This document shows, one piece after another, positions 1,912-35,800 of a stretch of 64,000 nucleotides of DNA; the stretch's first letter is position 1, and each line of letters begins with the position of its first letter. The notes under the pieces are model-generated. The model had not been told where the DNA came from and did no database searches. It saw only the letters and a program-made list of their open reading frames with translations. The translations under genes and the position numbers were made by a program. The stretch lies in contig NW_027449974.1 in the NCBI RefSeq assembly GCF_964194025.1, positions 1 through 64,000 of the forward strand, written 5' to 3'. This DNA comes from Convolutriloba macropyga (lineage: Eukaryota).

Positions 1912-2145
1912 AGTAGTAACATTTACAGACTGGAACATTGGAGGGGGTTGTCCTACCACGTAAGAGATAGGGTTGCACTGAGGACAACCCAAACTTTTAC
2001 ATTGGATAGGACAAACCAACCGTTTACATGGGATAGGACGACTCAAATTTTTGACGCAAGGACAGCTCCCTCCCAGTTTAAGCCAAGTTAATATCCAGAT
2101 ATTTCCCCCTCTATTTCCCGCTTTCTCCTTTTGAGGGATTTATTT
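1912..2145 (+). repeat. Left terminal inverted repeat of the Maverick
   Basis: Reverse complement aligns with 12865-13053 (e.g. CCCTATCTCTTACGTGG, TTGGCTTAAACTGxGAGGGAGCTGTCC). Carries extra ~26-bp subrepeats (TTACATxGGATAGGAC). Confidence 0.9.
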
Positions 2146-2631
2146 ATGTTTATGAAAGTGTGAAAATAAATAAAATATTTAGACTTATCTGAAAGACTGG
2201 ATATAAATTGTGATCTTATTGTTAAACCAAACCACGCAATATGCTCAAATTCACTATTTAAAATACACCTTAACAACACAAACTTGGGTTGAGAAATTGA
2301 ACCGTAATTTAACAAAAAATCTGTACAATCGGAAATTTACAACACACATTAAAAGCGTTGTTTCTGAAAACAGTATTGAACAAGTGTAGGTTAAACCTTT
2401 GAGAGAGCTTTTGAGTGATAACTGAGCCATTTTTAACAACATATTACAAAAAATACTAAGAAATGAAGAAGAAAAGTTCGAACATTCAATCTTTTCAGTT
2501 ATTAGAGGGAGTATATAAACAAATGGGGATTTTTTGAGAGTGTGTTAAAAGCACTGAATAGTTTTAAATTGAAAAAAAAAATTAAAACTCAATTCTTAAC
2601 AGCTCCAGACATAAAACTACGGCTGAAAATT

Positions 2632-5388
2632 CTAAATTTTTATTTGTCCCTTTTTACATGGTGGTATCATTTCTTCCTCCTCCGAATCGGTGATTTCACC
2701 TCTCTCGTCAGATTCGACAGCATCAAAATCTATGAATAGACAATTGGTTGGAGATTGATTGTCAATTATTGCATTCCAATTGACATTATCTTCACTATCC
2801 AAGTCCGGTTCGTTTAGTTTTCTTTCGATTCCGGGATCGGCTGGCTGCATTTTTTAGTTGAAGCAGGGAGTGTGCTGTCCGACTCGTTATCACGTTCCCA
2901 TTTTTCCTCAACAGATCCTCAATTTGATCTTGAGTCAGTGCTGCCCACTCTGGATCAGTTTCAAGATCAGTGGATTCAATTGCGTCTGCATGACCGAACG
3001 GCAAAGTTTTTATTCTGCCCCAAGAATGAAACGGTTGTCATCTAAGGGACTAAGGAACAGCTTTTTGATTGAAACGGTCTGTAGAAAGTGACGGTCTGAC
3101 AAAATTTTGTTCATTGCTGTTCGTAGTATGGATGACAGGAACAGATGGTCTCGGTATTACTGCTGGGTTAATTGTTCCCAAGCGGCCCCGGTACCACGTT
3201 TTACAGAGGTCGTTTTGGGAGTCTAAATACAAATAATTACGAGAAAGCGTAAAAATTTAAACAATTTTGCGTCAGAAATGTTTTCCAAGGAGATCGTTGC
3301 CGGTTCTTGCTTCTCTCAAAGTTTAGTGTGATAGTTGTGTGATAATGACCAACCAAAATCAAACCAAAGTTATAAAACAAAGTAAACCTGTTTGGCTTGT
3401 TGAAGATAAAGAATATAACTTTGGCTTCAGCGAACCAATTTCGCTGATGAATTTTCTAGCGATTTCTTACTTATATATATGAGAACCACGAGTTTGTTAT
3501 TGTTGTTGAAAAACTAATGCTCCTTAGGGTAATTTAAAAAATCAGACAATGGAAAAATTTTTGGCTGTTGCAGCTAATTCCTTGTAGAAGTCGTCAGATC
3601 GAAATTTATATAACAGACTGTTTGTGTCAGAAAACAGCATGTGACAATCAAAATGCGGCTTTGTTATGGCATAGTGAAACCCATTCATTCGAAATTTATC
3701 TAAATCCGGAATTGTTGCGCCAACAATTGTTGAAATATCCCATTAGATTCTCTTTGGGTCGTAGGTGACTGCAGCCGAAATTTTGCCAAAAAATGGAAGG
3801 GTTCAAAGGTAAAACGTGATACGTTCTTGAGCACCTGATTTTCATTCTACGCTAAAGTGAATTTCATTCTCCGTCTTTTTTACACAGGTTTTACCATAGG
3901 CGCTGTTTGTCATAAGTTTGAACAATTTTTTTCCAAATTGGTTCCTCGAGGTCTGTTTCTTTTCTGCGTTTAGTTTGATTTATGACTCCATCCAGTTAGC
4001 TTTTGAAAAGTGGGGCACGCAAGGTTTTCTTTCAAATATCAGGCCAAGTTTCACATAAAGTTGAATATTCCGATAATGGTGGAGCTTGTAACGTTTTTTT
4101 TCCGAAATGGTTTGTAATAAATTGGGGACAGATGACCGCGTCATGTTTACATTGAACAATATTTCTCTTTGGTAAGTGATGAGCCACTCATCGGGTACCA
4201 ATTTTTGTCATTTCTCCAGAAGCAAATCACGGTGGAGGTGTCGAATATTGTTTGGATACATTAAAATATCTTCAAGGTTGTAACATATTGGAGAATCGAT
4301 TGGAGTTTTGAGTGCCTGCTCGAGTAAGACTTCCAGTTTGAAAATTGATACACGTAGACGATTTGGAGCTCCTGTGTTTCGTGAAATTCTCTGAGTCTAG
4401 AAAACACATCGCGGGGATTGTTAGTCTCAGCTTTCCTGTTTGTAGCTGGTTTAGTCAATTGTGTTCTAATGTCTCGGGAAGAGTCAGCTAAAATTGGTCC
4501 GTGCAGTTCTTGGTACCGTTTTGTGAAATAGTAGTTGAAACAATCTAATTAATCATGGTTGTGTATGTTGAGTAAGTAGCGTTGATTCCGAAGACAAAGA
4601 AGAAGCTCAATAAAAGATGAACCACGTATTGGCGGAAATTTAGCAAGTTTTAACTCAAGCCTTAAAATTATTGGAAGAATCCAACCCTTTTCATTAGATG
4701 CGAGCACGAACAAAACAGTCAGCATCTTTTCCTCCATGCTAAAAAGTGTTTCGTTAGACATTTGATGATGAACAAGTGTCAACTCAGAATTGGCGTAGAC
4801 ACCAATATCGGATGCTTCTCCGTCGTCACGCGCATCTTTATGAACTGTAGCTTCGAGCTGATTTAAAGTTTTGTGAACTTTTGTTCAATGTTTTCTATTC
4901 AAATATGTTTTTGGTTTCCTGTCTCTGAGCAGTCATCAAATCGAGAAGGCCCACGGTGTTGTTACTATCTACAATACGACACGACTGAAGACTCCTTCTA
5001 AAGGCCGACTCTATGAGGGCACTTCGTTGCTCGTGTTGTTGCATTTGTTGCTGTTGTTGTTGTTTTTGATCTCCCAGTTGATGCGCATTGTTGAACTTGA
5101 CAGATACTTGAACTTCAAATGTATTACATGCTATTTTCTGATGTGTTCGTTGAACATGTTTTTATCGTTGAAAGCAAGAATATAATAATGACATTGCTTT
5201 GTTACTGCGGTATGAAAGTCATAGAGTTGACATTGAATTTCAGTTAATTTACTGCAAAAAACTGAACAAATTGAGCAACGTTATACGGTTATACTATTCT
5301 GGTAAGCATGAACACTGCATTCATGACGAGCACTGTTATTACTTTTGTTGCTGTAAAAAGTGTCGCAAAAGTTACACTTTTCTGACAA
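2632..5388 (-). pseudogene. Protein-primed family B DNA polymerase (pPolB) remnant with N-terminal C2H2 zinc fingers; frameshifted, exonuclease/motif A region deleted
   Basis: Motifs occur in the expected order on the minus strand: C2H2-like fingers (~5388-5130), PPIRGSSFIEL..LLNIHNHD (~4640-4550), HYRNIQLYVKLG (~4080-4045), FKLMTNSAYGKT (motif B, ~3925-3890), FSDTNS (motif C, ~3635-3615), LKPKLYS (~3430-3410), LSPLDDNRFIL and TLPFGH (~3060-2990). Confidence 0.9.
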
Positions 5389-5574
5389 ATTCAAGATAAA
5401 ATTTGTCAAACGTTTTATATAAGCAGATTTTTTTTAATTTGGTGGGAATGAAACTTAATTTACCGTAGTGCTGCAAAGTTTGAAACTTTGCGCTCGCAGA
5501 TTTGAATTTGAAAGTAGCTGATCAAATTGAAGTAAACTTGAAAGCGCGACAAAAGTCAAATTTCAACTAGAAAA

Positions 5575-8500
5575 TGTTCATCACTCAATCTTAGGAGAGA
5601 AAGAATTTGAACCACCAAAAAACGGTTTAGAAAGCGGGCAGATTAGAGTGAATGTACCTTCAACTTCTATGATTTTAATTTACAATCAAAAATAAATTTA
5701 GGAAAAAGTTGAAATTTTTGAGCTTGACAGAGTTGTGGTCTAAGGTCTTTTGAAGCTTACAAGCTAGGGAGCTCATGAACACATTTACTCTACGGCTCTA
5801 TATTGAGGTTTATAATACAAAAAAGGTCTCAAGTTGGTTAGGCATCAGTAAGACTATTTAATAAACATCAGTTTAAACTGCATCGAAAGCTGAGTTTTTT
5901 TTCGAAATGACTTTGACGTCTAAAGAAAGAGTTTTGCAAAGATATCAAGCGCTGACGAAAATGACTGAGATCCACAAGAGGCTTTCTATGATTCTATGAC
6001 TTTATTATACAATCAAAAATAAATTTAGGAAAAAGTTGAAAATTTTGAACTAGACAGAGTTGTTGGTTCATGTCTCGGAAGCATGCATGCTAGGGAGCGC
6101 ACGAACGCATTTTATCTACGGCTCTATATTGAGGTATGTAATACAAAAAAGGCTCAAATGGTTAGGCATCAACAAGACTATTAAAAAAACATCAGTTTAA
6201 ACGGTTCGAAAGCTGAATTTTTTTTCAAATTACGGTGGCATCTAAAAAAAGCATTTTACATGGATTCCAAGTGTTGACGAACATGACTGAGATTCAAACG
6301 AGGCTCTCTTTGTTGATGGAATGTTCTTATATAAGAATTTTGTGTAAACAATTCAACGATAATTACTGTGTTTTTTCCATTTTTTAAGTTTTTTTTTGTT
6401 GAAAATGATTAAGGAGTTGAGACTTTTTCTTCAAGAACAAAATAATGACAAACCTAAGTCACTTCATCAGCTCTCTAACAGGTTCCCATTATAGGAAAGT
6501 TTCTGTTTAGTAAGGATAAAACTGCCTCCTCCATGTTACAAAATTGCGATTTTTAGTATTTGGGATTAAGAGGGTTAACTAAAACAACAAACAATAAATC
6601 GCAAAAAAACACTACGTTGCTGGAAATTTTTGGACCTCAGGACTCTGAAGTCTTTGATAGTGGCGAAATTTGTCCGTTGTATGAGCGTATCCCCGATCAT
6701 TTTAGAAAATTGTTTCTTTCGGATCATTGCAGAAAGTTATTTTGTTATTTTTGCAAAAGTTATTGAAAAAAAAATTGTTTTCGATAGGAAATTTGCCCCT
6801 GTTACAGCGATCAAAAGCATGCTGCTCATTGATATCATCGCAAAATCACTTTCGTTTTCGCGGATCTTGAGTCTTGATTTCGCTGATTTGAATCCAAATG
6901 AAAATTTTTATTGATTTTAAGAAAAACGGGCAAGATATGAATGCAAAAATTACAAAGTTGATGTTTTCAGACTTGTGTTTAGTGAAAACAGTAAATGAGC
7001 AAACACTAGAACAATATCACCAGAGCATCAAGGCTGGTAAAACTTCATTGTTTAATGCAAAACACATCAGAAAGTCCATTTCAGTCGTTTACCATTTCTA
7101 CTGGATTTTTGGTTTTCCTCTTATTTTTCGAAATTTCAACAGTTTCTTCAAATTAAGAGCTTTTTATTGCAAAATTAATCTCCCTGGGGCAAACGAATAA
7201 ATGTATCTTTTGTTTTTTTGTTTATTTGTCGTTTTTTTCTTAATAAATAACATTTATCTGCAATCTATAAATTTTTTAAAAATTTTTTTTGTACAAAAAG
7301 CTGCAATATGAAATAGACAAGTCTGATAACTAAAAGCGGTGAAATTTGCTAGTTTGTTATATGAACTAGTCCACACAAGTACTTTTTCAACAAAGTGCGT
7401 TTATTGAAATTCATGTGGAACATGATTGAACTTGTTCAATTCCTTACGAAAGGCTTGAAGGTTTTCATTGTGCATTAATTGTCTATCAAATACACAAATT
7501 GGTTTGTCTACAAAGCCAATCATCACAATTGGACGAATGAAAAAAAATGTCAGGTACAGAATTGTTGAGCAATCTAAAGCACGCAGATGGGAATACAGTT
7601 TCAGTTCTTTTTTAAAATATCAAATATATATCCAACATGTTGTTTTCTGGTCTTCGTTTTTCGGGAGCCGCACAAACTTGCGGTGTCTCAGAGATTTCTG
7701 GCGTTTCAAAAAAGTCTGAAGTTGATTGCTGTGATATATGAATGTTTGTACCGGATAGAATGTTCATGTCGAAATCTTGGTTTGCGTTGCTCAGAATTTA
7801 AATAACAACAAAACGGTTGAAAAAGCAGGCAGTTTAGAGTGAATATATCTTCAACTTCTATGATTTCATTATACAATAAAAAAAAAACTTTAGGAAGAAG
7901 TTGAACAATTCGAACAGGACAAAGTTCTTGGTGCATTTCTCGGATGCATGCATGCTAAGGAGGCATGGACACATTTGCTCTACGGCTCTATATTGAGGTA
8001 TGTGATACAAAGAAAAGCTCAAATTGATTAGGTATCAACAAGACTATTGAGAAAAACGTCAGTTGAAACTGCATCGGAAGTTGAGTTTTTTCGTATGACT
8101 TTGACATCTAGAGAAGGGATTTTACAAGGAGTCCAGTTGTTGACAAACCTTACTGAGATCCACATGAGGCTCTTTGTTGATGGCATGCCCTTTTATAGGA
8201 CTTCCCATTACAGAAAGCTTTCTGTTCAGTAAGGGTAAAAATGCCTCCTTCAAGTTAAAAAAGCAATTTTTTAGTTTGTGGGGACTAAGAGCGATTAACT
8301 AAAATAACAACCATAAAAAGCAAAAAAATTACGCTGCAGGATAATTTTGAACCTTGGGCGTGTGAGATCTTTTATAGCGGAGAAAATTGTCTATCGTATG
8401 AGCGTATCCCCATTCATTTACGACAAATTTTTCTTTGCTTTCGGATCATCGCAAAAAAGTTGTTTTTGTTAAATTTGTTGAAAAAAAGCTCAATAGCATG

Positions 8501-8800
8501 CTACTCATTGCATTGACATCATCGCGGAATTATTCTTCTTTCCGCGAATCATGAATCTCAGCTGATTTGAATCAAAACGAAATTTTTGTTGTTTAAGAAA
8601 ACCGGGCAAGACGTATATGTGAAAGATATAAAGTTGAAGGTTTTAAACTTGTGTTTAATGAAAGCAGTAAATGAGCAAACACTAGAACAATCTCATTAGA
8701 ACATCAAGGCTTGCAAAAGCTCATTTCCAATAACACATCAGAAAGTCCATGTCAGTCGTTTACAATTTTTCCTCTTAATTTTTGGAACTTTAACAGTGTT
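5575..8800 (+). repeat. Internal direct duplications of decayed orphan Maverick ORFs
   Basis: A ~320-bp block (CTACGGCTCTATATTGAGG..AAGACTATT..) occurs three times (~5665, ~5992, ~7856). ~6480-7150 is repeated at ~8200-8800. Confidence 0.85.
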
Positions 8801-8989
8801 TTCAAAATAATGCTGCTTTCAGAGGGCTCCGTTTTGCTGAGTAGAGCTGCAATAGCATTAATAAAGAACTTTGGAATTATACAATGCTGGTATACTGTCC
8901 AAACTTCGCCAACGTTTTTCTGTTGAATCAAAACAACAAAATTTTTGTACGAAAAATTTGTCTAATAAGGAAGCGTTTGTTCTAAAGAA

Positions 8990-9500
8990 ATGGCTGATAC
9001 AGAAAAAATTTTATCAGACATTTTAACAACAAAAATTGAACGAGCACAAACTGAAAAGTCTTAAGTAAAGATTGAAATTACGACTGTTAATCAAGAGAAA
9101 CCGAACGAAATGAACACAATAATTTTAGTGCTAAAAAAACGTAACACACCTTACAGCTCATCTAGGATCCCAATTGTTTTTATTTTTTTTCTTCAGGTTT
9201 TGCGTTATAACGGGCCACCAACCAAGTTAAGCTATGATACACAATACGTTGGACTCTAGGTTATTGCTTATATAGGTTAACATCAGATTTGAGTTTTCTG
9301 TATAAAATTACTAACTATGATGCATGTTTCCAGTAAATTGGAATTCACTTGAACCTCAAGATGTGCTTTTCAGGACTTCAAAAAGCGTACCTAGCGACCC
9401 ATCTGTTTCAAATTGTTGTATACAATCTTTAAAAACGGTCCGCACTTATGATTTCCTTCTATTAAAATTCTTTTTACACTTCCCCTCGGCTTTTTAATTA
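8990..9500 (+). pseudogene. Decayed orphan Maverick gene with two putative short introns (9141-9196, 9276-9333)
   Basis: ATG-led MADTEKILSDILTTKIERAQ...; GTAACA...TTTTTTTTCTTCAG (56 nt) and GTTAAC...CTAAC...TTTCCAG (58 nt). The exon 2/3 junction is in phase. In-frame stops are present. Confidence 0.45.
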
Positions 9501-11010
9501 CACTTGAGGTCACATCCGTTTTGTTTTATGTCACATTTAAGGAAAAGCGAAGAAAACCTTATCTAAGGTCACATCTGAAATTAATTATACAGTCCAATGC
9601 AACAGACAGAGTCAGCTGGATTTAACTGAACAAAATGACTACACTGATTTGAACCCTACTTGCCGCCGCCATTAGTTTGACTCCTTACACATAGCAAAAC
9701 ATTAGAATACTTGAAAGTGATAAAAAAATGCGCACTTTGCCTTTCACTTCCACTAAATATACATAAATTGTTGATTGCTCTTTTGATATTTCCAAAACCG
9801 ATAAGCATTTGATTAAGGCAAAGCGGAATTATGTGATAGTACAGGAACATATGTATTTCTGAAACTGGTTAAAAAGGCAGCAGAAGATTAAGAGTGTGTT
9901 CACAGAATTTCGTTAACTGTGCAAGAATATGGGAGCTTGTTCAATTCGGCACAGAAGATACTTGAATCAGTAGTTCAACAAATGTCAGCAAAGGAGCGCT
10001 CAAGAAAATCACCACCAAATAAAAGGCCTCAACTCCAACACAAAAATGTCAGCAATAATGGTGGAAGCAAGGTACGAACGTTTGCAAAGGTATTTCAAAC
10101 ACTGTCAAACAATTTAAATTCAAAATTGTTGATCACAAGCCAATAGTCATAACGAGTTTGAATAATTATGCAGTTTGTCCTCATTTTGAGTTCAAGTTTT
10201 GCCAGCTAGCAACTAACAAACTTTTAGAAACAAATTTTAATTGATAGTTCAACTGAAATTGGGTCTACAAAGCAAAGCAAATCAATTGCCGTCCCCTCTC
10301 TTTCCCTAATTTCCAAACACCTTTTTTAAATTCTTACAAAATGGAAACGAGTGGAGATATATTTACAAAGCTCAATTTAGCCGTTGACTTCAATGACAAA
10401 ACAGGAGAAGGAATGGACTCAGCAACGGTTCACAAGCGTCTTCCCATTTAATTTTCAGCCACAGCCAAGCCAAATGAGTTGACGACGATAAAACGACGGC
10501 GAAAAAACATCAACTACAGAAACTACACAGAAAACAATCCACAATGGTATCTCAACAGCAACTGGCGATCTCAACAGAAAACTCAAGCTAACCAATTTTG
10601 TACGGAAACTTAAAAACAAGATGAAACACTTTTAAGTGGTCTTCATTTTGGTGCCTTTTGTAAAGGTATGGGTATATTTGAAAGTGGTTGTGGGAAACTA
10701 TTTATTGTGTGTTTGAAGAAAAAATTAATATTAAAAAAGGACATTTTACTCGCCACCTATTATAGTTAATCTTCATTTGAAGTGCAAAGTGAAGCAATTG
10801 AACTTCATTAATTTTTACAATTCGTCTTCCACTAAATATAACATGCTCAAAATAAATATCAGAAAATCCTGAGTTTTGACTCTGAATCGCTTGGTGTTCG
10901 AGAAATCAGCATCTTTGTGCATTATTGCTCTGAGAAAAGAGTCGGTTTTGTACGTCTCTATAAGCAACAATTGATTGTCCCAAGGGGTCGGCAAATACAA
11001 TTTTTTGTTT

Positions 11011-11105
11011 CTAATTCAGTTTGAAAATCAATTCAGTTTTGCCACAATAAGATGGACCAGACACTGCCATGAAGAGTCCTTTGCTCGTTGAAATAGTTTT
11101 TTCAC
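11011..11105 (-). pseudogene. Maverick packaging ATPase (FtsK/HerA, A32-like) N-terminal fragment
   Basis: KTISTSKGLFMAVSGPSYCGKTELIFK: a beta-strand plus Walker A motif (11035-11058), truncated immediately afterwards. Confidence 0.8.
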
Positions 11106-11659
11106 AAATATTGGTTTGGAAGGTCGTAGCAAAGTGCAAGAGAGGCGCAAGAACCAAAATATTGACCCCTCGTAATCCAATTAGGAAAGCACCATCTTGA
11201 TAAGAGATACTGCAATAAGAAAAATTATAAGGAAAATTTGAGTAAAATAAACATCTTCTGATCGTGGAACTCTTGTTTTTCAAAATCTCAATGATTTCCT
11301 TTCTTGTTCGTTCTCATCAAAAACTATTTGGTTATGCCAACCCCCGAATCTAACTGATCCGCAGTTGACCTCATGGGATAACGGTTTCTCAAAAGTGAAC
11401 TCGAACAAAATAATTATTTTTTGAAATCAAATAAAACATGAAAATTATTATTGATAGTCTATTAAAAAATCATAAGTTTTTATCCTATATTTGTGGGCAG
11501 ATGTATGGCATGCTTTCATGCCCTACTCCATCCCGTAACACATAACTGAAAACACGCATCCTTGTTTTACAAGCTGCCTAAATCCATCAGGAAGATTTTT
11601 ATCGTTCAGAGGCACTTGCACTGGAACTGATCTTTTGGGCATAGGTCACGGGGATAGAT

Positions 11660-12354
11660 TCATGCTTTGCATTTTCTCTTTAATAGAAATGATACAGCTG
11701 AATATATTCTAATAGTGATCGATATTTTCGGAAGGGTTCTGTTTTGGTTGATATGCAAACAACTTGCTGTTTCCTCAATACTGTTTGTCCCCGACTGCAA
11801 TTTTTTTTTCTCCTTGACTCGTGTAACAGTCAATTGACTCTCAGCTGTTAAGCAACAGTAAACGATCACATTTGAAGTCAACTTCAGTTGGGGTACAGAC
11901 GGTGCTGTCTTTTCTAATCGACGGTTGTTCCTGGATCATTCAATAGTAGAAAAGTTGAGCCTTCTTCCTCGCACAATGTTTTTTTTCTGTTGCTCAGGGA
12001 AAGCTGTTGAAAGCAAGTCACAGATTGGGGTCTCCCGAAAGACAGTCAAAAAGTTCAATTTTGCGGCATAGCAACTTCTCAATGTTTGTAAATTTTTCTG
12101 AAGCAGTTTTTGCATCGCTTCAGTTTTCTCTGCCCATTTCGAATAAAAATCTGATTGAAGAAATGGAAGCACTACACTCTGTAGAATTGGTTGCAGATAG
12201 CTCTCTGGGTAATCTCCCAATCCAAACTATGAAAAGATTTTGAAACCCACTGATAAGATTTTTGTTCACTCAAAGTAAGAGAATTAAATGGGTGCGGAGG
12301 CGAGAATGAAATTATGCGGATGTAATTATTCGAAGTTATAGCTAGCTCTTTCAC
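11660..12354 (-). pseudogene. Decayed orphan ORF near the right end of the Maverick
   Basis: Abutting minus-strand ORF pieces (12172-12354, 11936-12220, 11660-11881) with coding-like composition; no recognised motif. Confidence 0.45.
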
Positions 12355-12864
12355 AGTAAAATCAGGTTTCTTTTTGCTTCCAAAGCCTTCAAAATAATCA
12401 CTCTTACAGTCAATACTCTAATCGATTGAATAAATGATTTATGAAAGATTTTAAGTATATACAAAAAAGCAATGCCAGTCACATGACCCAGATATTCTTT
12501 TTTGACCGGACAGGGTAAAAATTATGAATAACTGGGTACATTCTCACACTAGTCATTAACGAAACCACAAGTGTCGTGAAGTATAGCTTGCAAACGCAAA
12601 ATTCTAAAATTTTTGTGATAATTTTCTAACAAAGAATTGTCAATCACAATCAATCCACCATACGGCTTCAATTTCATTGCCATTTCCAAATCGAGGCCAG
12701 GATCCAAATACAAACAAGCTGCTAAAAGTTAAAAAAAATCTTCAGCCGTTTTGTGAATATTCTTTTTTTGTCATTGCTGTCATTGCGCACTACTCCAAAA
12801 ATGGCAATTTCTACACAGTTACTCAATCCTCTTGATCCCTTTCAGTCAATTAAACAGTGCTAAG

Positions 12865-13053
12865 TTATAATTACCCCAAAAGAAGAAAACAGGAAATGGA
12901 GGGGAAAATGTCCGGATAATAATTTGGCTTAAACTGTGAGGGAGCTGTCCCTGCATGTAAAAGGTTGGGTTGTACTATCCAATCTCAGGAGAACCCTATC
13001 TCTTACGTGGGAGGACCCCACCCCCGATGTTCCAGTCTGTATATGTTACTACT
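12865..13053 (-). repeat. Right terminal inverted repeat of the Maverick
   Basis: Inverted copy of 1912-2145 ending in ACTACT. Confidence 0.9.
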
Positions 13054-13262
13054 CTTATTTTCTTGACTTTAATACACTTCCATTCCTGTGGATTGATAAC
13101 CCACCCTCCCTTTCTTAGCGCGCTTTTAGTTTACTGCAGAAACAGAAATAATTTTTAGTCTTAGCACTGTATTAGTCTATGCGCATTTCGCATTGCTGTT
13201 TGTTGGAATTTTTTGCTGAATATTAACACACTAAACGCGGCAATGTGCCAAACAAGAATAAT

Positions 13263-20800: not shown

Positions 20801-23800
20801 ATGTTTTGTTGCAGATGTGCGTTTTGTGTCGCCTCGGTATCAACATCGGCCGAAAGAGGGCCAAGTGACACCCTCTCCCAAACATACAGGCAGAAGACAC
20901 TTTCCCAATAGTCAAGTCGCAAACACTTCTCTCAATTTCTCCACAGGTCTGTTCATATTTGGAAAACTTAACGACGTCAGTCTGTGACGTAAGCATTCAG
21001 TCTTTAACGTATATTAGCAAGTTTTTGCTGAATATGAGTTTTCGTATTCTGACAGACACTGGCAGACTTTTTTTCAGCGGAAATCTGACATAATTGTTCA
21101 TCCAATTTGTGGAAAACAACTGACATTATGTAAGAATTGTGATCACAATCCAGCACATTAAGCGGGTATTTACTTAAAAACATATCCGCTGAGATAAATC
21201 TGTATGTTATCTAATTTTCAGATAAAGCCACGACATGGATTGAGGTTACACTTATCTTTTATTTGTTTTTGTTCGTTTTTTTGGAATCAACCGGCTTTTG
21301 ATAAACTATTCTCAATTTAGAGGGAATGGTTGAATTAAATTCCCTAACAGTTACTCTGAACTTCATTTTTTTTCATAATAACAGGTGAGCAAATCCCAGC
21401 AGGTGTTAGTTTGAGTTCAGTACATCAAACTGATTCCCAAGTTGACAGCCAATCAGGATACGGCAGTGGAATCAATTCCCACTTCGCATCTCCTCTGACG
21501 TCACCACGGAAAATGTCCAGGCTAACAGCTCTAGTGCAGCCACCATGGGGAGTGCAGTTCAGAAATGTTAGATTTTTTTCATGTTTTCTCGAACGTTTAA
21601 TCAAAAAGTTTTTCATGTTGTTTCTCATTTAGTGAACTTGCTTAATGTTGAACTAAACCCAAACTGCAGGGTTTACCCTCTCGTGGCTTTAGTACTAATT
21701 CGCAACTTTGTTTAATTTTAACTTCGCGAATTTTGTGTTCGCGAAATAAATTTTGCTTTTAAGAATAAATTTTGTTTTTTTTTCTGCAGAATAAAATGAA
21801 ACCGCGTCCGGACAAAACAGTCCCAGACAAAACAGTTACAAATTGCAAAATATTGCCCGATGATACAGTCCTGGACAATATTTTGTTATTCGGGACTTTG
21901 TCCGGGACTGTTTTGTCTGGGACTGTTTTGTTTCTTGACGTAATCCAAAGTACCTAATGTCATAATATCCAATTTATTCCCTTTTATCATTTTGTTTAAT
22001 CATGAGATTACAAAACAATTGTAGGTAATACAAGACTGATTTATCATACCTCAGCTGATAACTTGGTTGTGGTAGTTAGAGTGCAGCCTCACGGGCTGCT
22101 GAGCTATGGCCACGGTCCGGCAGGAACGGCAAAATGACCTAGTCTTACATTGAAATATTGGTATTTATATTTTATTACATTATGAATTACGTCAATTCAA
22201 TAGGCAATATTTTGCTAAGTTGTTTTTTTATAAATTCACAAAAGGCTACGATATTGGAAACATTTTGGGTGTATAGGTACTGGGTATTTTTGTCTTGACA
22301 CCGTATATACTTTAGTCACCTATACACATCTTTAAATTACTTGTAAACTCTTGTTTTAGTCATCAGTCAAAAAGTGTTCATCTAGATCTTAGCGAGCATT
22401 TTATTTATCAGTGCCAATTTTTGTTTTTCCCTTGCTCAAAATTAAAACTGCAATAACAATTGATTAAAACGGTTCTGATTTTGTGCCCCGGAAAAACAAT
22501 GATGATATTTGTACTTTGGTTGTGGTATTTGGTTGTGGTAGTTATAAGGCAGCCTCATGGGTTGTTGAGCTAAGGCCGTGGTCCGCCATGAACAGCAAAA
22601 TGACCTAGTCTTACATTGAAATATTGGTGATAATACTTTATTACATTATAAATTATGAAACTTCAATCGGCAATTTTTTGCTCAATTGTTTTCATATAAA
22701 ATCACAAAAGGCTACGATATTGGAAACATTTTGGGTGTATAGGTAGTGGGTATTTTTGTCTTGACACCGTATAAATTTTACTCACTTATACATATCTAAA
22801 AGTTTTTGACAGTTATTTTGTATTAGTTATCCGTCAAAAAGTGTCCCTCTAGTTCCTAGCGAGCAATTTATCAACCAGTGCCAATTTTCGTATTTTTCCT
22901 CGCTCAACATTAAAATAGATTAGAATGATTCTATCTTTGTGCCCGGAAAATCAATTATGATATTTGTACTTTGGTTGTGGTAGTTATAGTGCAGCCTCAC
23001 GGGTTGTTGAGCTAAGGCCATTGTCCACCATGAAAGGCAAAATGACCTAGAATTACATTGAAATATTGTTAATTATATTTTATTACATTATAAATTACGT
23101 CAATTCAATAGGCAATATTTTGCTAATATGATTTCTTATAAATTCACAAAAGGCTACCATTATGGAAACATTTTGGGTATATACGCTTTGGGTATTTTGT
23201 CTTGACACCCTATAAACTTTATTCATTTATGCCTATCTGTAAGTTACTTGACAGTTAGCTTGTTTAGTCATCAGTCAAAAAGTGTTCTTCTAGCTATTAG
23301 CGAGCATTTTGTTTAGCAGAGCCAATTTTTGTTTTTTTTTCCCTCGCTCAACATTAAAACTGAAATAACAATTGATTAAAACGGTTCTGATTTTGTGCCC
23401 TGGAAAAACAATTATGGTACTTGTACTTTGGTTGTGGTATTTGGTTGTGGTAGTTATAAGGCAGCCTCACGGGTTGTTGAGCTAAGGCCGTGGTCCGCCC
23501 TGAACAGCAAAGTGACCTACTCTTACATTGAAATATTGGTGATAATACTTTATTTCATTATAAATTATGACACTTCAATTGGCAATTTTTTGCTCAATTG
23601 TTTTCATATGAATTCACAAAAGGCTACAATATTGGAAGCATTTTGGTTATATAGGTAGTGGGTATTTTTGTCTTGACGCCGTATAAACTTTAGTCACCTA
23701 TACACATCTTTAAATTTCTTGTAAATTCTTGTTTTAGTCATCAGTCAAAAAGTGTTCTTCTAGATCTTAGCGAGCATTTTATTTATCAGTGCCAATTTTT

Positions 23801-26800
23801 GTTTTTCCCTTGCTCAAAATTAAAACTGAAGTAACACTTGATTAGATTGGTTCTAATTTTGTGCCCCGAAAAAACAATTATGCTTAAAAAGATTTGGAAA
23901 GCCAATGAGAGATGACGCAGTAAAGCAAAGCCTTACTGAATTCCGAGTCAAGTCAACGAGTATACAACTGATATTAATCGTGCAGTGTAAATATTTACAA
24001 ATTACATATTTTTGACACTCAACAAAAAAATTAAATAAATCGAAATTTTTTCGGAAATTTTAAAGAAGAACGCGTGAAGTTCATACGTTTTTATACGTCA
24101 AACCGACAACAGAAAGTCGATATCATTTCCCCAAATTCAATGTCAACCTATACATATTGTTAGTCCATTCCCATATGATGTCTGCTGAGTAGGTATAATG
24201 ACTCAATACCGGGGCTTTTAAGACGCTCTCAATAGATTTTGTGGAATAGAATTTCTAATTGCATAAATTGTTTCTATTCTTTCGGCCATTTTTCGTAGGA
24301 TATAAATTAACCTTTAAACCTTAAAAGCTGTCTATGTGAACCCATAAATATTTTTAAATAGTTATCTGTTCATTGAAGTCCTTTTTTGATCTTACCGAAT
24401 TTAAAGCTATCCATTATATAAGAGCTAAACTACCCATAACATTCTGTTTGAATTATTAAAAAGTAAAAGTAAAACAAATCGATTATACAGGGTCACTCTA
24501 TCGTGGGAAAAGGAAACAACAAATCCTCTTGTGTTTCTTTCGGTAGGTAGTTCCGATCACAATGTACCAGAGCAGTAGTCGCCCATCGTGTGCAGCAGTG
24601 GGCATGCTGGCAAGACTACTGGGACTGAGGATGAACTACGTAGAGGTCAACACCATCGCTGTAGGTCACACTTTAACCTCTGCTCAGGAAATTCTCGAAC
24701 CACTTTAACTCTTAATCGGATCTAGCAGCTTAGTGGCTTCAAAATTTTCTCAACACACAGGCGCAAACAGGGAGTGTCTAATTGAAGCAAGGCCTAATTT
24801 CGTTCAATATGGCCTGGAAAATTGCCGTAATGAAGCGATTACAATGAGCCTGGTCAAATTTACAAATTTGGGTGGTCATGAAACCAGCTGTCGTGTGTTT
24901 TGCTGCGAAAATTTTTACGAATTTCTCTCTTTACATGACCAATTTTTCAGGGCGAGTAATTTTTGATAAAAATGAAGTTTTTTTTACCGAAATTAGTTCT
25001 TGTTCAAAATGAGATTTGTATCCCAAGGATGAAATTATGCCCGCGTTTTGAACTCTTTTTTGATCACCATTTCAACTCCAATTCGAGCGTTATGTTTCAT
25101 TTACGAGAGACAGAACAGATAATAGTGAAACATTGCGCGGTGGATCTAGAAGAGGCTGCTGAAAATCTTGAATAGACTCTTTCCTCAATATTTCATCACT
25201 TCGCATTTTTTTCAGCGTTATATCAACAGTTTCTATCACTTTTTCTAGTACTAATGGATGCCTAAGTGTTCATTTAACTCGGTTACAGACCGTGCAACGT
25301 TTTTACGTAGCTCCAAAAAAAAATAATTGGTCCAATTGAATTAGTGTTCAAATTTTACCAAGAACGTTTTGTAATAGCGCTGAAGCAAATGCGAGGATTG
25401 TTTTTAATCAGTGCTGAAAAAATTGTTAGAAGAGTTGAAAAGTTCTGAATAACTTACGGTAAATGCACTGCTATTGCGATAAAAAAAATAACTGCGATAA
25501 AAAAAATGCTGAAAGTACTGAATAAGAATTGACAAAATTGGGAAAAGCAGAAAATAATTTAGGCTCTGAGTTTAAGGCATCTAAAAAGATGTTATAAAAA
25601 CACCTTTGGCGCAAAAGAGGAAGAGACAGTCACGACACCACCATAGTGATGAGTGCATTTAAAACTTGCAAGAATCTTGCAAGCTGATTCAAAACTTTGC
25701 AATAGTCTTGCAAGAATCCTGCAAGATGTCAGTCCGGGCAGAAAATAAATCAGGGCACTATTGTTTTAGAAAGCACCTTTGAAGCAAATTTTTGTTCAAT
25801 AAACAAATTACAAAGGTGAAACCCATGGAAAAATGTTTAGTCCTGATTCAAAATCTTGCAGAACTCTTGCAAGTTTTTCAATTCTGGAAAATTTTTCTGA
25901 GTATTTTTGGAAGCCAAAACTAACTGAAAACCAAACGAATTGCTTTTTACAAAAATTTGGAATATCATAACTGATTCTAATTGATTTTTTTCTGAAGTAC
26001 TTCTCGAATGTGGAGTCTGTTTTAAAAGAATTCTAGTTTCCAACAAACAACTAGAAACATCTTAAACCACACCAAATTATCTGTTTTAAATGCAGTTGAT
26101 CAAATAAACGACGAAAACAACCACTTTTAAATTTTTTCTTTGATTTTTTTAATCAAAAGAATTGTTTATAGAGAAATCATTAGTCGGAATTTTTTTATTT
26201 CTGATATTATCGGTATTTGAGGTTGCTTTTGCAGTCGTAAAATTTATTCTGATCAAGGTTTGGTCTAATTGTCTTCTTATTGAGTTGCCAGTGAACCAAT
26301 TTGATGCCTTCATTTGATAGCTATTTGTGTTAATGGCCTTGAAGTTGTTTCAATCAAAAATTATTTTGCAAGTGAATAAAAAAAACTACCAGTACCAAGC
26401 AAAAATCTTGGTACTGGTATGCATTCACTGGCAAAATTGCATTGCAAGATTCCTGCACGTTTTTTGATTCCTCGATCACTAGGGTAGAGCCCGGTCGAAG
26501 ATCTAAAAAGGTTACTGAAAAATTCTCGGGATTTGCTAAATTAGCGTTTACAAATTAGTGAGATTGTTAAACTGAGATCGAAAACTTTACCAGAAGAACT
26601 GAATTAATAAAAAAAACAGAAAATTAAGCGCAAAGTTTCAGGAAAAATCGCGTATAAAGTTAGTGATTAAGTGGAAAGATTTCGCTTTTCAACGCTACTT
26701 ATGAGTTTTTCCACGCAAAAATTCAGAAAAACTTTCTGCCCCGGCAGAAAACCTTTTCAAAATAACACAAATTGAGGATGCCAGCTTTTTTGAATTTTCC

Positions 26801-29800: not shown

Positions 29801-32800
29801 ACTTTAAAAAAACACAAAATTTTTTGGACATTTAGAAAATTTTGAAAAAATAGTATTTTTAATAAGCATTGCGAAAATACTAATCTGAGACGTCCAGAAA
29901 GCGGTCTTTCCATTTTTTTTCTATTTCCAATTTTTCGTGTGGTTTTTGGAATTTTTCATAAATTTTAAACTCTTTTCCTTGAAACTCTTTCTGAAGTCGT
30001 AACATTTGCCGAAAGTTGAATGCTTGCAGCTGACATCCAAAGGTGGTGTCCTTGTCTAGCAGGCATCTAGTCGAATTGGCTGTAACAATTAACAAAACTA
30101 AAAATCGGTTCAAAAAAGCACAAAAAACTGGGCACGGTGTGCTAAAAACAATTTGTCCTAAAAAAGGGTGTAACGGCTGCTCTCCTTGTGTTTCACAAAG
30201 AAAGTTTTACACCGCCCAGTTCGTTCTGAGTGGTTACAAAAATCTGTCCGGATACTTCGTTGATGCACTTTGCTTTTGTAGCTGTATATCCGCTCTGCTG
30301 TACTTACCGTTGCATTAACTAATTTGACTAACTTAGTTTTGGATTTTTTCTCAATTGAACTGGGTCCACAGATCACACAATACGGGATCTCTTTATGTTT
30401 ACCAGTCCAATCGTTTTGATGAAACAAATCTAAGGCAAAAATATATGCCTAAGAAGTGTTATGAAAATTGGTTTCTAACATAATCCTAGGTGTGTGAGTG
30501 TGTGTGTGTTGCGATTTTCGCAGAGTACTCACGAGTTGAAGATGGGAAATCGGGACACAGAAAATTGAATTCACTGCTCGAGACGTTTTCGATACAAGAC
30601 ACAATATTTGATAGAATATTGCTCAAGGCCAATTTTTGTTATCAAGACACAGGATAAATTTAACAAATATACTGCTCAAGGGTTTCGTTTTAGCAAGACA
30701 CAGTAACAAATATACTGCTCAAGACTATATTATTTCAACAATTTTAATGCTGAGTTTATTTGCTAGTTCGAGTTGCTAGGCTGACAAGATATTGAGTTTT
30801 TTAGTTCTTATTTTTGTTCAGCTTGTTAACAATTTTTGTGCTGACGTGGCATACGTGGCTGTTTCTGATTTGCTATACACAGTTTCCTCGCTAAGGGGAT
30901 GGATAATCGGGATAAAAATAGAACACAGTAATAGTTTTCGTCCAACGCAATTTTGTCATTCCTTAAGCTCAACTCCAACATCGCCGGCCCTGTTTTCCTT
31001 CTTGAAAACATCATCGTCAGTTGGTAGTACTGGAGCGAGCTTCACTACGGGCCTCTTGTAGTATCCATCTTTTGTTCGGATTTTTGCTGATCGAATCACT
31101 CCGTCGAACCCTTCAAACGTTTCGGTTATTTGACCCAGATTGTAATATCCACGTTTGTCACTGTCTTCCATTTACCACACAAGATAACCCTGCTGAAGAC
31201 TTCTGTCTGTTGTGGTCTGCCATTTCTTTCGACTATTCAACGTTGGCAAGTACTCTTTACGGAATCTGTCCCAGATGAGGTCTGCGTAAGCTTGTGTTTG
31301 TCGGAAGAGCTTTCTATGATCAACAAATTGCTCTGCACCTGATAGATACGGTAAACAAAGGTTCTTGTTGCCCAGTAGAAAATGGTTTAGAGTAATAGCT
31401 TCTAAATCGGTAGCATCAGAACTGACTTGTGTCAGCGGTCTAGCATTCAGCGTCTGTTCAACAAGACACATCGTGGTTGACAGATCATCCTCCGTGACTG
31501 ATCGATTACACAGCACTGCATACATTGCCTTCTTGCAACTCCTAACCAGTCTTTCCCACACTCCTCCAAAGTGTGGTGCTGCAGGTGGGTTGAACTTCCA
31601 TCTGATTCCTTGTTGAATCAGATGTTCTTCAATTCGCGCCTTGTTCCATGCTGCTATATACTCTGCCAATTCTTTCTCAGCTCCAACGAAGTTCGTCCCG
31701 TTATCACTAATGATTTTGACCGGTTTGCCTCTTCGAGCAATGAATCTCATAATTGCGTTCAGACATCTATCAGTGTCTAGTTTTGGTACAATCTCTATAT
31801 GTACCGCACGTACAGTAAGGCATGTGAATAGACAGCACCAACGCTTTTCGTTTCTTCGACCAATCTTTACTGTGAATGGTCTGAAATAGTCTACGCCCAC
31901 ATTCGAAAATACTGTTGATGCGACTAATCGTTCTTCAGGTAGATCTGCCATTACTGGTGCCTTTGTTTGGGCTCTTCCCTTTCGACATCTAATGCATTTG
32001 TTTTTGACCGATCTCAAAGCATTTCGTATGCCTAGGATCCAGAATTTCTGCTGAACTAAGTTTCTGACATGTTCAGTACCTTCGTGATGATTATTCTTAT
32101 GTTCTTTTTGCAAGAATAATTCAACTACATGGTTCTTCCAATGTAACAATATTGGATGCTTGGTTTCGAAGTTCAATTGACTTTTTACCTATTCTGCCCT
32201 GGGCACGAATAAGTCCTGGCTGGTCAATGAATGGTGAAAACTGGAGGATTTTGCTGTTTTTTGGAATTTCCTTTTCAGCCTTGAGAGATTTCATCTCTTC
32301 AGCAAACTGTTCTCGCTGCAGTAGTCTGAAGATGCTTGCTTGTGCATCCTCTCCTTCTTCAACACTTAGTTTTTTTGTTACCAGTTTGTGTTTTATAAAT
32401 ACGCGCTGTACGCATGCCATTGTATTTACTAGTCGATTGAAACTGCTATATCGGTCCCACTGAATCATCGGCTTCTTCTCTTCAACCTTTGCCGAGAAGA
32501 CCATTTCGTCGTTTTGTTCGTCTGAAGCAAATGTTGAATTCAACTGTGAGGCCATTCGTTCTCTCGTTGCTTCAACCAGGCCGGCCCAGTGAGCCATTCG
32601 CTTCTCTTAAGTTCGTCAATATTGATCGCTCGTGTCCCGATGTCAGCTGGATTGTTAACACCACTCACATGATTCCACTGTGAAACATTAGTTTTATCCA
32701 AAATCTCAGCCACTCTGTTTGCAACAAACACCTGTTGCTTAGGGTGGGAGCTATGAATCCATTGCAGAACAGTAGTGGAGTCTGTCCAAAAATTACAACT

Positions 32801-35800
32801 GTGAATCTTCGATTCGTGTTCCTTCACTATCTGTTCTTTAAGTCACCACTGCTGCTTGTAGTTCCAAGCGTGGTATGGAAAGGTGTCGCATCGGTGCGAC
32901 TCGGCATTTTCCGATTACAAATGCTAAGTCTGCTGAGTATTCTTTGGGCTTTGAACGTAGGTATGCCACAGCGCACATTGTGTCTTCAGATGCGTCGGCC
33001 AACACATGAAGTTCCCATTTGTCCTTGGCTGTGCTGAAGTATCTTCTATCAATGCTGGTTTCTGCTACTTCTGGAAGCTGCGCCTTCCACTTCAGAAACT
33101 CTTCTTCTGCGTTAGGTTCTACTGAGTTGTCCCAATGTTGTCCATTTTTGGTCCAGATAATCTTCAGGAGTCGTCTCATATGAACACTGAATGGTGCAAA
33201 CAGTCCAAGAGGATCAAACACTGAAGAAACTAGAGATAAGATCTTCCTTTGGGTGATTGGGTTCTCAACTTTTTTGCTCGTACCTCTACAAACCTGTAGA
33301 CTATCATCGGTAATCGTCCACTGAAGCCCAAGCACCGATGACCCTTCCTGGCTGGGTTCTACTTCAACATGCTTTGTTTTGCTGATTGATCTTAAGTCCT
33401 CTGGGATTGCGTTGGTTACCACATCGCTGTTGGTGATCCACGTCTTCAGTTCAAATCCATGTTTTGAGAGAAGAGGTTGCAGTTGTTTGAAAACCTTGAT
33501 TGCTTCTTCAGGTGTTTCAACTGACTTGATGAAATCGTCCATGTAGAAGTTGTTTTGGACTGTTTTTGCTGCAATTGGGAACTCGTCCTCGTTATCGATC
33601 GCTACTCGCTTCAGAGCATAGTTGGCACATGTTGGTGAACTCTTGGCTCCGAAAACACGACGCTGATACTCGTAAATTTGCACAGGTTCGTTCATTGTTG
33701 GTCGCCACAGGAATCTCAAGCAGCTTTTATCCCGATCAGGAACTTGCACTTGAAGAAACATTGATTCAATATCTGCGGTTAAGGCAATTGGTCCTCCTCA
33801 AAATCTGAATATTGTTCCGATCAACCCGTGTAGCAGATCGGGTCCGGCTAGCAACTTGTCATTTAGGCATACATCCTTGTATTTTGCTGCAGCGTTGCAA
33901 ACACGGCGAACTTTACCCGGTTTGTTGGGGTTTAGTACTGGATGGTGGGGCAAATATCATTCCTTTCCGAAAGTGCCTTTGACTTCTGATTTGCCAAGGA
34001 TCTTCACAAATCCCTTTTCAACATCTGTATCAATTGACTGTTGATACAATTCTTTTAACTTTGGGTCTCGTTGGAATCTTCGTTCCAGTGAGTAGAGCTG
34101 ACCAAGGGCTGAGCTGTAATTGTTCGGAAGATTGGGTTCTGGTTCATTCCAGAGCATGCCCACTTCGTACCGCCCCCTGTAAACTTCGTTGTGCTCTCTA
34201 GAAACTTCTGAGCTTGTTGCTCTTTCTTTGATTGACTTAGAACATTTATTTTGGAAGCATAAGTTTCTTTGTCCCACCATGATTGGATATTTTCTGCCAC
34301 TTTCACATCTTCTGTGAAGGCGAAATGACAAACATTTTGACTTTTCTTGCCTTTCATGGGACAACTGACTACCCATCCTAATTCTGTTAAGACGGCGAAA
34401 AGCTCACTTCGTGTTCCAATCTTATAGTCCAATAGACGTTGAATTTCGTAGGCATCTTTTCCAAGTATGATGCCTACTTCCATCAGGTTGAATGTTCTGT
34501 TAGTGAGAACATTCAGGTGTCTGAAGCTGTTCTTCAGTTCCTTTTAGTCATATGTCGTGTTTCCCAACGAGATTGATGGGTGTGCAAACGCTTCGATCGA
34601 ATGCACCTTTGAATGTTGTCCTTTATTGTGATAGGAACCTTCTCGGTCCTCAAATCTTGCGTCCCATGTATACCAGCTATGTTCAAGGTAACGTCCGTGC
34701 CATTGGCTTGTAGTTGATCCTTGACACTTTGATCGATGAATGATACTGTTGACCCACTATCGAGGAAAGCGTAGGTAGTCAACCTGTTACCACCTTTCTG
34801 AACCGATACCGGAACGATTTGAAGAAAACTAGTAACTTGGTTACTCTGGTTGATTGTTGCCGCGCTTACATTAACTACGTGACTACCCTCGTCCATTTGG
34901 TTTTCTGAGTGTAGCAGTCTGTTGTGTTTTTTGTTACATCCATTTATACTGCACGGGTGGACTTTACAATCTTTGATTGCATGCCCTTTCCCCAGACATC
35001 CATAACATAAGCGTTCTTTTCTCACTGCTGCATAGCGATCGGTGACATAATCTTGAATATTGGACAGTTCCATATTTTAAGAGTGCCATCCGCTAGTGGA
35101 CAGTGGTTGTTTTGCGTCTGCTTGGTTTCTTGCAGGTTTGAACTTGCACTGAAGTTCGATGTCTTCGAGAATCGTTTTTCTCTATTTGTGTTGCGTCGGT
35201 CTTCTTCTTTGTGTTCCCCTTTAAACGATGAAAACCCTTCATGCACGAATGCCATTCGTGATAGCCATTTTTCAAATATGATTAGATCAGGCCAGTCCTC
35301 GTCTTTGTCATCGACGTAGAACCACCATTTTTCTTTAAGAACTTGAGGCAGCTTATCAACTGCCATGTACAATGTCGAACTTGATTGCAAATCACCAATA
35401 TGTTTGTACTCTTTGAGCAAGTTCACGAAGTTAGATACAATAACAGAAAAATTAATCAGGCTGGTTGAATCACGAGTTTTCACTTGATTAGCTTTTCGTA
35501 GGCTCTCGAGCTGCGCATCTATAATTACATGCGGTCTTCCAAATTTTCTTTCTAAAATGTTCCAGGCAGCACTATAAAACTGTCCAGAATAGCCCATTCC
35601 CGAGATTGCAGATTTTGCTTTGCCTGATAGCAGAGTCTTCAAATGACTCATTTTATCTGAGTCGGGAATCATGCGTTTATCTACTGTTGCTATGAACATG
35701 CTAGACCACTCAGGCCACTCCAGCGGGTTTCCGTCAAAATTTTTCAACCTCAATTTTGGTAAACTACTGCTTGAATGTCCAGTGTTGTAGTGCCTTCCAG

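Follow-up and report, generated by a model that had tools for sequence, protein, structure and literature searches.

A probable spliceosomal intron conserved at one site in the DNA polymerase gene of Maverick elements

A short interval with the ends of a spliceosomal intron interrupts the protein-primed DNA polymerase (pPolB) gene of many Maverick families, and on the sequence evidence we give a probability of about 0.9 to its being a real, old and conserved intron of the replicase, likely spliced by the host. It came to light in the window, the 64,000-nucleotide stretch of Convolutriloba macropyga DNA analyzed here (contig NW_027449974.1), where it lies inside a decayed Maverick copy. In the model proposed, many Maverick families would have inherited the interval as a component of their pPolB gene. 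The host would excise it as a U2 intron from a nuclear RNA polymerase II transcript, and excision would join the K-x-YS motif to a downstream exon predicted to carry the thumb and the final strand of the palm. Both ends of the intron would be maintained by selection for polymerase function, leaving the interior to drift freely. Mavericks replicate as DNA and do not pass through reverse transcription, so any intron they acquired would be handed down passively, and no special function is necessary to explain its persistence. Splicing itself we infer from the pattern described below.

The Maverick copy in the window and its interval

The element (1912 to 13053) is a decayed, internally deleted Maverick/Polinton copy of 11.1 kb, recognized by its terminal inverted repeats and by its collinearity with a long copy. 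The long copies of its family measure 16.1-17.4 kb, and the window copy aligns collinearly with one of them at 72-80% identity, with large internal gaps. One terminal repeat starts with AGTAGTA (1912-2143, plus strand; inverted repeats I1, I3 and I4) and the other ends with TACTACT (12867-13053, minus strand). Outside them, the left and right 6-bp target-site duplications (1906-1911 and 13054-13059, both on the plus strand) agree at five of six bases; these duplications are perfect in all five of the long copies inspected. The long upstream exon of pPolB survives as a remnant at 3397-5388 of the minus strand, found by tblastn and by blastn against the long copy; it has many stops and frameshifts and has lost about 1.6 kb internally, near 4336. 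The homologous ORF of the long copy matches Pfam PF03175 above the cut-off. Within this exon, the K-x-YS motif (L-K-P-K-L-Y-S; 3410-3430, minus strand) serves as the anchor upstream of the intron. The downstream-exon remnant (2644-3222, minus strand) also has stops and frameshifts; it holds A-K-G, the predicted thumb, the D-D-K-R and T-L-P-x-G motifs and an acidic tail, as placed by aligning a relative's model to phi29 polymerase. Further along, a 5' remnant of the packaging ATPase gene (11017-11313, minus strand; Pox_A32 on the long copy's ORF) is truncated by the loss of about 5.3 kb, in which the integrase and the capsid-sized ORFs have also gone. Among 11 ORFs of the long copy scanned with Pfam, eight are without a match, the others matching PF03175, rve and Pox_A32: the ATPase matches PF04665 above the cut-off, and the integrase is a 352-codon ORF that matches PF00665 with an E-value of 2.4e-7 and 31.4 bits (cut-off 32.6). 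The ORFs of 437, 297 and about 160 codons have no Pfam match and are of a size that fits the major and minor capsid proteins and an adenain-like protease. The window copy is a fossil.

Several other features surround this gene. Between 5688 and 8725, within the Maverick, the window holds repeats of a few hundred bases (families D9, D10, D14 and D16), which show as overlapping matches against the long copy. Another and more decayed pPolB remnant lies outside the element, at 1-500 on the minus strand. At L035:2269-6048, the pPolB of the window's family has at its start a C2H2-like zinc finger and an extended run of glutamines, both missing in uninterrupted relatives; the glutamine run is the sole insertion in this family's upstream exon relative to three such relatives, and no further intron was found in that exon. 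Elsewhere in the window, 30528-37415 is presumably an LTR retrotransposon of the BEL/Pao type, judging from gene order and motifs; its direct repeats lie about 6.43 kb from each other and share 93-97% identity, and its gag-pol frames, on the minus strand, are broken. At 22063-23882 there is a tandem array of four units of about 460 nt, 74-93% identical to one another.

A sequence-only reading of the window had proposed a spliceosomal intron of 165 nt, running on the minus strand from a GT at 3387 to an AG at 3223. The stretch is as described, T-rich (39% T, 32% G+C), with a stop in the upstream frame and a TTTAG 3' end, and the polymerase C-terminus resumes directly after 3223. The proposed acceptor stood and the proposed donor did not. 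When the window copy is aligned with 29 other loci of its family, AG occupies the 3223 column in 30/30, but the GT at 3386-3387 (minus strand) is present in only 3/30 and is internal to the intron. The family donor sits 9 nt upstream, in the column of position 3396, where 29 of the 30 loci have GT, each as GTAAAA, and the window copy is the sole exception. Since all the others have GT at 3396, the homologous interval runs from 3396 to 3223, and the donor of the window copy has decayed. Delimited in this way, the phase-1 intron (3223-3396, minus strand) has a T-rich tract and a TAG acceptor ending at 3223, and is 174 nt long here; counted from the same column, its length is 156-175 nt over the 30 loci and 159 nt in 14 of them. 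The sequence-only reading had noted that a one-base indel was needed to restore the frame and had called it plausible in a decayed copy; the offset lies a few codons past the acceptor and is a private lesion, which the other 29 loci do not have.

In principle, the interval could come from a small transposon or introner nested in copies that were already dead, and a precedent exists in the introners of dinoflagellate Maverick-like elements, which the accessible text reports as mostly gained after integration (PMC11957031). The distribution of the interval makes this very improbable. A genome search with window positions 3000-3650 gave 114 candidates, of which 40 were scored; each of these, younger copies included, covers the interval over roughly its full length. 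It is found in near-identical young copies on many contigs, which means that it was copied along with the element. When the interval alone was the query (105 candidates, 40 scored, 30 fetched), 29/30 fetched matches lay between both pPolB flanks and the remaining one had the upstream flank only; no copy was seen in unrelated host genes among these 30, so a mobile sequence with near-identical copies at unrelated sites was rejected. The interval also occupies one position common to 19 families in which the interiors are unrelated. Among the 30 best uninterrupted matches (150 scored of 5938 candidates), none is an interval-free copy of the window's own family, although such a copy, if present, should rank first. 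In each genome search, 40-150 candidates were scored out of hundreds to thousands. A search of Rfam with the interval returned no match at E <= 1.

The same site in other polymerase families

To return to the probable spliceosomal intron, its site can be followed into other pPolB families. A query spanning the site, taken from an uninterrupted relative, returned both split and uninterrupted matches. In 28 of the 30 best uninterrupted loci, 17 or 18 residues separate the start of L-K-P-K-x-YS from A-K-G; the other two failed the motif filter. Both motifs are present in 49 of the 53 split loci fetched, and in 47 of these 49 a phase-1 GT/GC..AG pair can be removed to leave, by length arithmetic, the same 17 or 18 residues to A-K-G. 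All lengths in this first set were multiples of three, which would favor translation of the interval, and the search was therefore redone with the upstream exon as the only query. Seventy loci were then examined (30 returned and 40 picked for varied length, some of them fetched earlier): 64 are split, six lack a motif, and the GT/GC..AG pair is present in 58/64. The commonest lengths become 97, 158, 153, 159, 110, 139 and 173 nt, and 97, 158, 110, 139, 131 and 173 nt among the split loci shift the frame. A rule that all intron lengths divide by three was rejected as a bias of the query spanning both exons.

These lengths bear on the proposal that the interval is translated, with ribosomes reading through one stop and adding a loop of 53 residues to the polymerase. 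The form commonest in the window's family would allow it, since 159 nt keeps the reading frame and contains one stop in that frame, and in two related proteins, P0011 and P0042, an insert of about 21 residues with no stop occupies the site. The divisibility seen in the first sister-family set, which pointed the same way, was the artifact just described. Sister-family lengths of 97, 158, 110 and 139 nt break the frame, the modal lengths of 19 families fall into the three frames as 10, 4 and 5, and the splice-like ends are conserved when the interiors are not. The observed lengths refute read-through for the frame-shifting families, and as a general account we consider it scarcely credible. Three findings had been named beforehand as contrary to a spliceosomal intron, namely younger copies lacking the interval, a match to a separate transposable element, and a consensus that reads through it as coding sequence; in all three respects the outcome was the opposite.

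For comparison between families, 149 of 219 loci had at least 230 open upstream codons and were clustered at 88% identity into 26 families, of which 20 have the insertion and six do not (three from this genome, three from the metagenome). At the shared phase-1 site between K-x-YS and A-K-G, 19 of the 20 insertion families have the GT/GC..AG pair (15 in this genome, four in the metagenome). The intervals of these 19 families are 60-208 nt long with 24-38% G+C. Of 171 family pairs, only 4, all of them close relatives, have interiors whose alignment scores exceed those of every one of 100 shuffles; in the flanking protein, identity ranges from 40 to 88%, with a median of 54%. At 18 examined metagenome loci, of 20 found, the intervals at the intron site measure 57-101 nt and five loci are uninterrupted. 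The viral contigs searched held no relative. Three related families of the same genome are uninterrupted at the site. Dependence of the replicase on the host spliceosome, as first suggested, is thus a reasonable reading of the interrupted families and does not extend to all of them.

Some neighboring observations can be added. One family uses a GC donor for the same intron, with GCAAGT in 21 of 25 clustered loci (L125-L131 and related loci). A second and distant pPolB group (L051-L080) is abundant in the genome and uninterrupted through the equivalent region, one of its subfamilies having an 8-residue in-frame insert after the motif; a Pfam-driven genome search brought up an uninterrupted pPolB group other than that of the window's element. 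Precise intron loss at locus L084 was considered and rejected: part of the acceptor T-tract remains there, and the locus looks like an imprecise deletion. In the metagenome sequence JAAUXW010092638.1 (L167:756-830), a second candidate intron lies in the N-terminal part of a pPolB (phase 2, GT..CAG, about 73 nt, frame-shifting), and its removal would yield the 12-residue spacing found in most relatives.

The GT/GC and AG counts in the 19 families are set by the search rule and are no evidence in themselves. Background frequencies (0.076 for GT plus GC, 0.058 for AG) give an estimated chance of about 2% per family for such a pair at the site, and with the pair present in 19/20 families the site is more than chance. 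Positions outside the rule also fit the U2 consensus, the donors resembling GTRAGT: at the donor, +4 is A in 17/19 families, +5 is G in 13/19 and +6 is T in 16/19; at the acceptor, -3 is a pyrimidine in 19/19 and -5 is T in 18/19. All 19 families have 5-12 pyrimidines at positions -15 to -4. A branch-point-like YTRAY lies 12-60 nt upstream in 11/19 (with no control set). No family lacks both the -1 and the +5 G (0/19), a compensation that is not significant (p = 0.13). Donors are weak in several families (GTAAAA, GCAAGT, GTTAGT), that of the window's family, GTAAAA, being weak at +5/+6. Self-splicing introns of group I or II, with a conserved RNA of several hundred bases, were rejected because the intervals are 60-208 nt long, have an unconserved interior and give no Rfam match. 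Four contig-only runs of unspecified kind, compared with a copy of one family, contained no junction at the predicted sites, a result with no bearing on expression. The interval is likely a spliceosomal intron, probably of the major (U2) class.

The predicted product and the history of the intron

What the downstream exon adds can be judged from the uninterrupted relative P0007, modeled with AlphaFold2 from a 46-row alignment (mean pLDDT 82); sequence searches of solved structures gave nothing useful. Structurally the model best matches phi29 polymerase, with 531 residues aligned at an rmsd of 3.0 and a Z of 19.5 against 13.0 for the next family; residue 826 of the model aligns to phi29 residue 575. 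We take phi29 residues 531-575 to be the thumb. Two strands, 762-767 and 770-775, form a hairpin in the model, and the intron site lies at the turn that connects them. By this prediction the thumb and the final palm strand come from the downstream exon; an unspliced product would lack both, and pPolB would likely be inactive if the interval were retained.

The same model argues against a polymerase split into two genes, with the thumb part made separately from a start of its own. The downstream part is open for 234 codons in long copies, as a separate gene would be. However, the break would fall within the hairpin, there is no methionine before A-K-G in the downstream frame of the copy that was translated, and two separate genes would not retain GTRAGT and YAG at the exact spacing of uninterrupted relatives. 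We regard a split gene as most improbable.

Among the 46 best of 120 listed matches to deposited proteins, 24 end within 65 residues past the motif, with unrelated tails, 15 are uninterrupted, five are without the motif and two are those with the stop-free insert. More distant proteins (listed ranks 57-120) have a spacing of 14-23 residues in 61/64. Two RefSeq models of the acoel Convolutriloba macropyga (XP_075239384.1 and XP_075254871.1), which are automated predictions, join across the interval with a change of frame, giving spacings of 17 and 18 residues; they are 91-98% identical to two families of this genome. As a separate matter, seven related pPolBs from other assemblies (P0050-P0056) stop a little past F-H-Y/S-K-V and immediately ahead of motif C, the outcome expected if a phase-0 intron lay at a different site. 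This second site is a candidate; the family was not found in this genome, where the best match is 62%.

An intron that removes the thumb when retained could also double as a switch, with tissue-specific or small-RNA-controlled retention giving a thumb-less polymerase and limited copying. This proposal is nested within the preferred reading, and its low standing applies to the switch and not to the intron. A single intron held at one site over deep divergence would suit it, as would the weak donors of several families and the predicted loss of the thumb. Against it, the tails that retention would yield show no relationship from one family to the next, either in sequence or in length, three families of the same genome have multiplied without the intron, and a DNA-copying element needs no function for its intron to persist. 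In its fullest form, an ancient marine-invertebrate Maverick lineage would have used the intron ahead of the thumb as an on/off switch confining its copying to permissive cells, and the sister families in the same genome would have escaped by losing the intron through a reverse-transcribed message. We hold both the switch and this scenario to be unlikely.

The conserved intron itself may go back to one old gain within this clade of pPolBs. In a quick tree, to which proteins lacking DNA evidence were also admitted, the insertion rows are spread over a single, strongly supported clade that has uninterrupted rows nested in it, and seven changes are needed. A careful tree of 26 DNA-checked families and 10 distant proteins needs two changes, and the AU test does not reject grouping all 20 insertion-bearing rows into one clade (p-AU 0.295), which fits a single gain. 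Repeated intron loss, hinted at by the quick tree, is unsupported by the DNA-checked one; losses in some families are possible. The first gain, long ago, may have come from an introner.

Comparison with known systems

Introns in DNA-copying elements are already known. The Drosophila P element, a selfish element that copies as DNA, depends on host splicing for its key enzyme, and regulation by retention of its third intron has been demonstrated. The Maverick replicase would likewise require host splicing for a key enzyme, but the pPolB intron is without sign of regulation.

The elements described here resemble animal Mavericks/Polintons (polintoviruses, with adintovirus-type pPolB, PF03175) in their AGTAGTA..TACTACT inverted ends, their 6-bp target duplication, their length of 16-17 kb, and their complement of a pPolB at one end, an rve integrase and an A32-like ATPase. 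They differ in that the core genes of animal Mavericks are described as intronless in the text available, whereas here pPolB is interrupted inside its catalytic core. In the parts of these papers that are accessible, no introns were found in intact vertebrate Mavericks and large insertions were treated as decay (PMC8097293); nematode Mavericks have intronless core genes, with introns only in host-derived cargo genes (bioRxiv 2022.07.12.499685); and protist endogenous viruses are stated to be without introns, their genes having been called with intron-blind tools (PMC10120064). No description of a spliceosomal intron in a Maverick polymerase was found in the literature searched, mostly open full text, and a prior note is possible. 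Term look-ups in the text available for PMC10748475, PMC11296320, PMC8502044, PMC12220804, PMC5718144, PMC11161782 and two 2026 preprints returned no Maverick-polymerase intron.

If the intron is real, the intron-free assumption for Maverick core genes would have to go. Intron-blind gene calling, or the treatment of insertions as decay, would mislabel whole active-looking families as truncated, as the 24 of 46 best proteins that end near the site suggest. Retention of the splice site across families at about 54% identity would be sequence evidence of long-term transcription and processing in the host nucleus, which bears on the replication mode of Mavericks. Intron-bearing and intron-free families in one genome provide a built-in comparison for effects of the intron on silencing or copy number.

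Two viral systems are also close. The adenovirus E2B unit (Ad-pol and pTP) encodes a related protein-primed polymerase and its mRNA is spliced by the host, but, in the accessible text, its upstream exons are joined to a long terminal coding exon and the choice selects pTP or Ad-pol (PMC11304566). In the Maverick gene, a single short, host-style intron would instead split the C-terminal palm/thumb region. Dinoflagellate Maverick-like proviruses also contain spliceosomal-type introns inside the elements, but these introners are described, in the text available, as young, repeated, mobile and mostly gained after integration (PMC11957031). The pPolB intron, by contrast, appears to be old, confined to a single position, diverged beyond alignment, and inherited through replication of the element itself.
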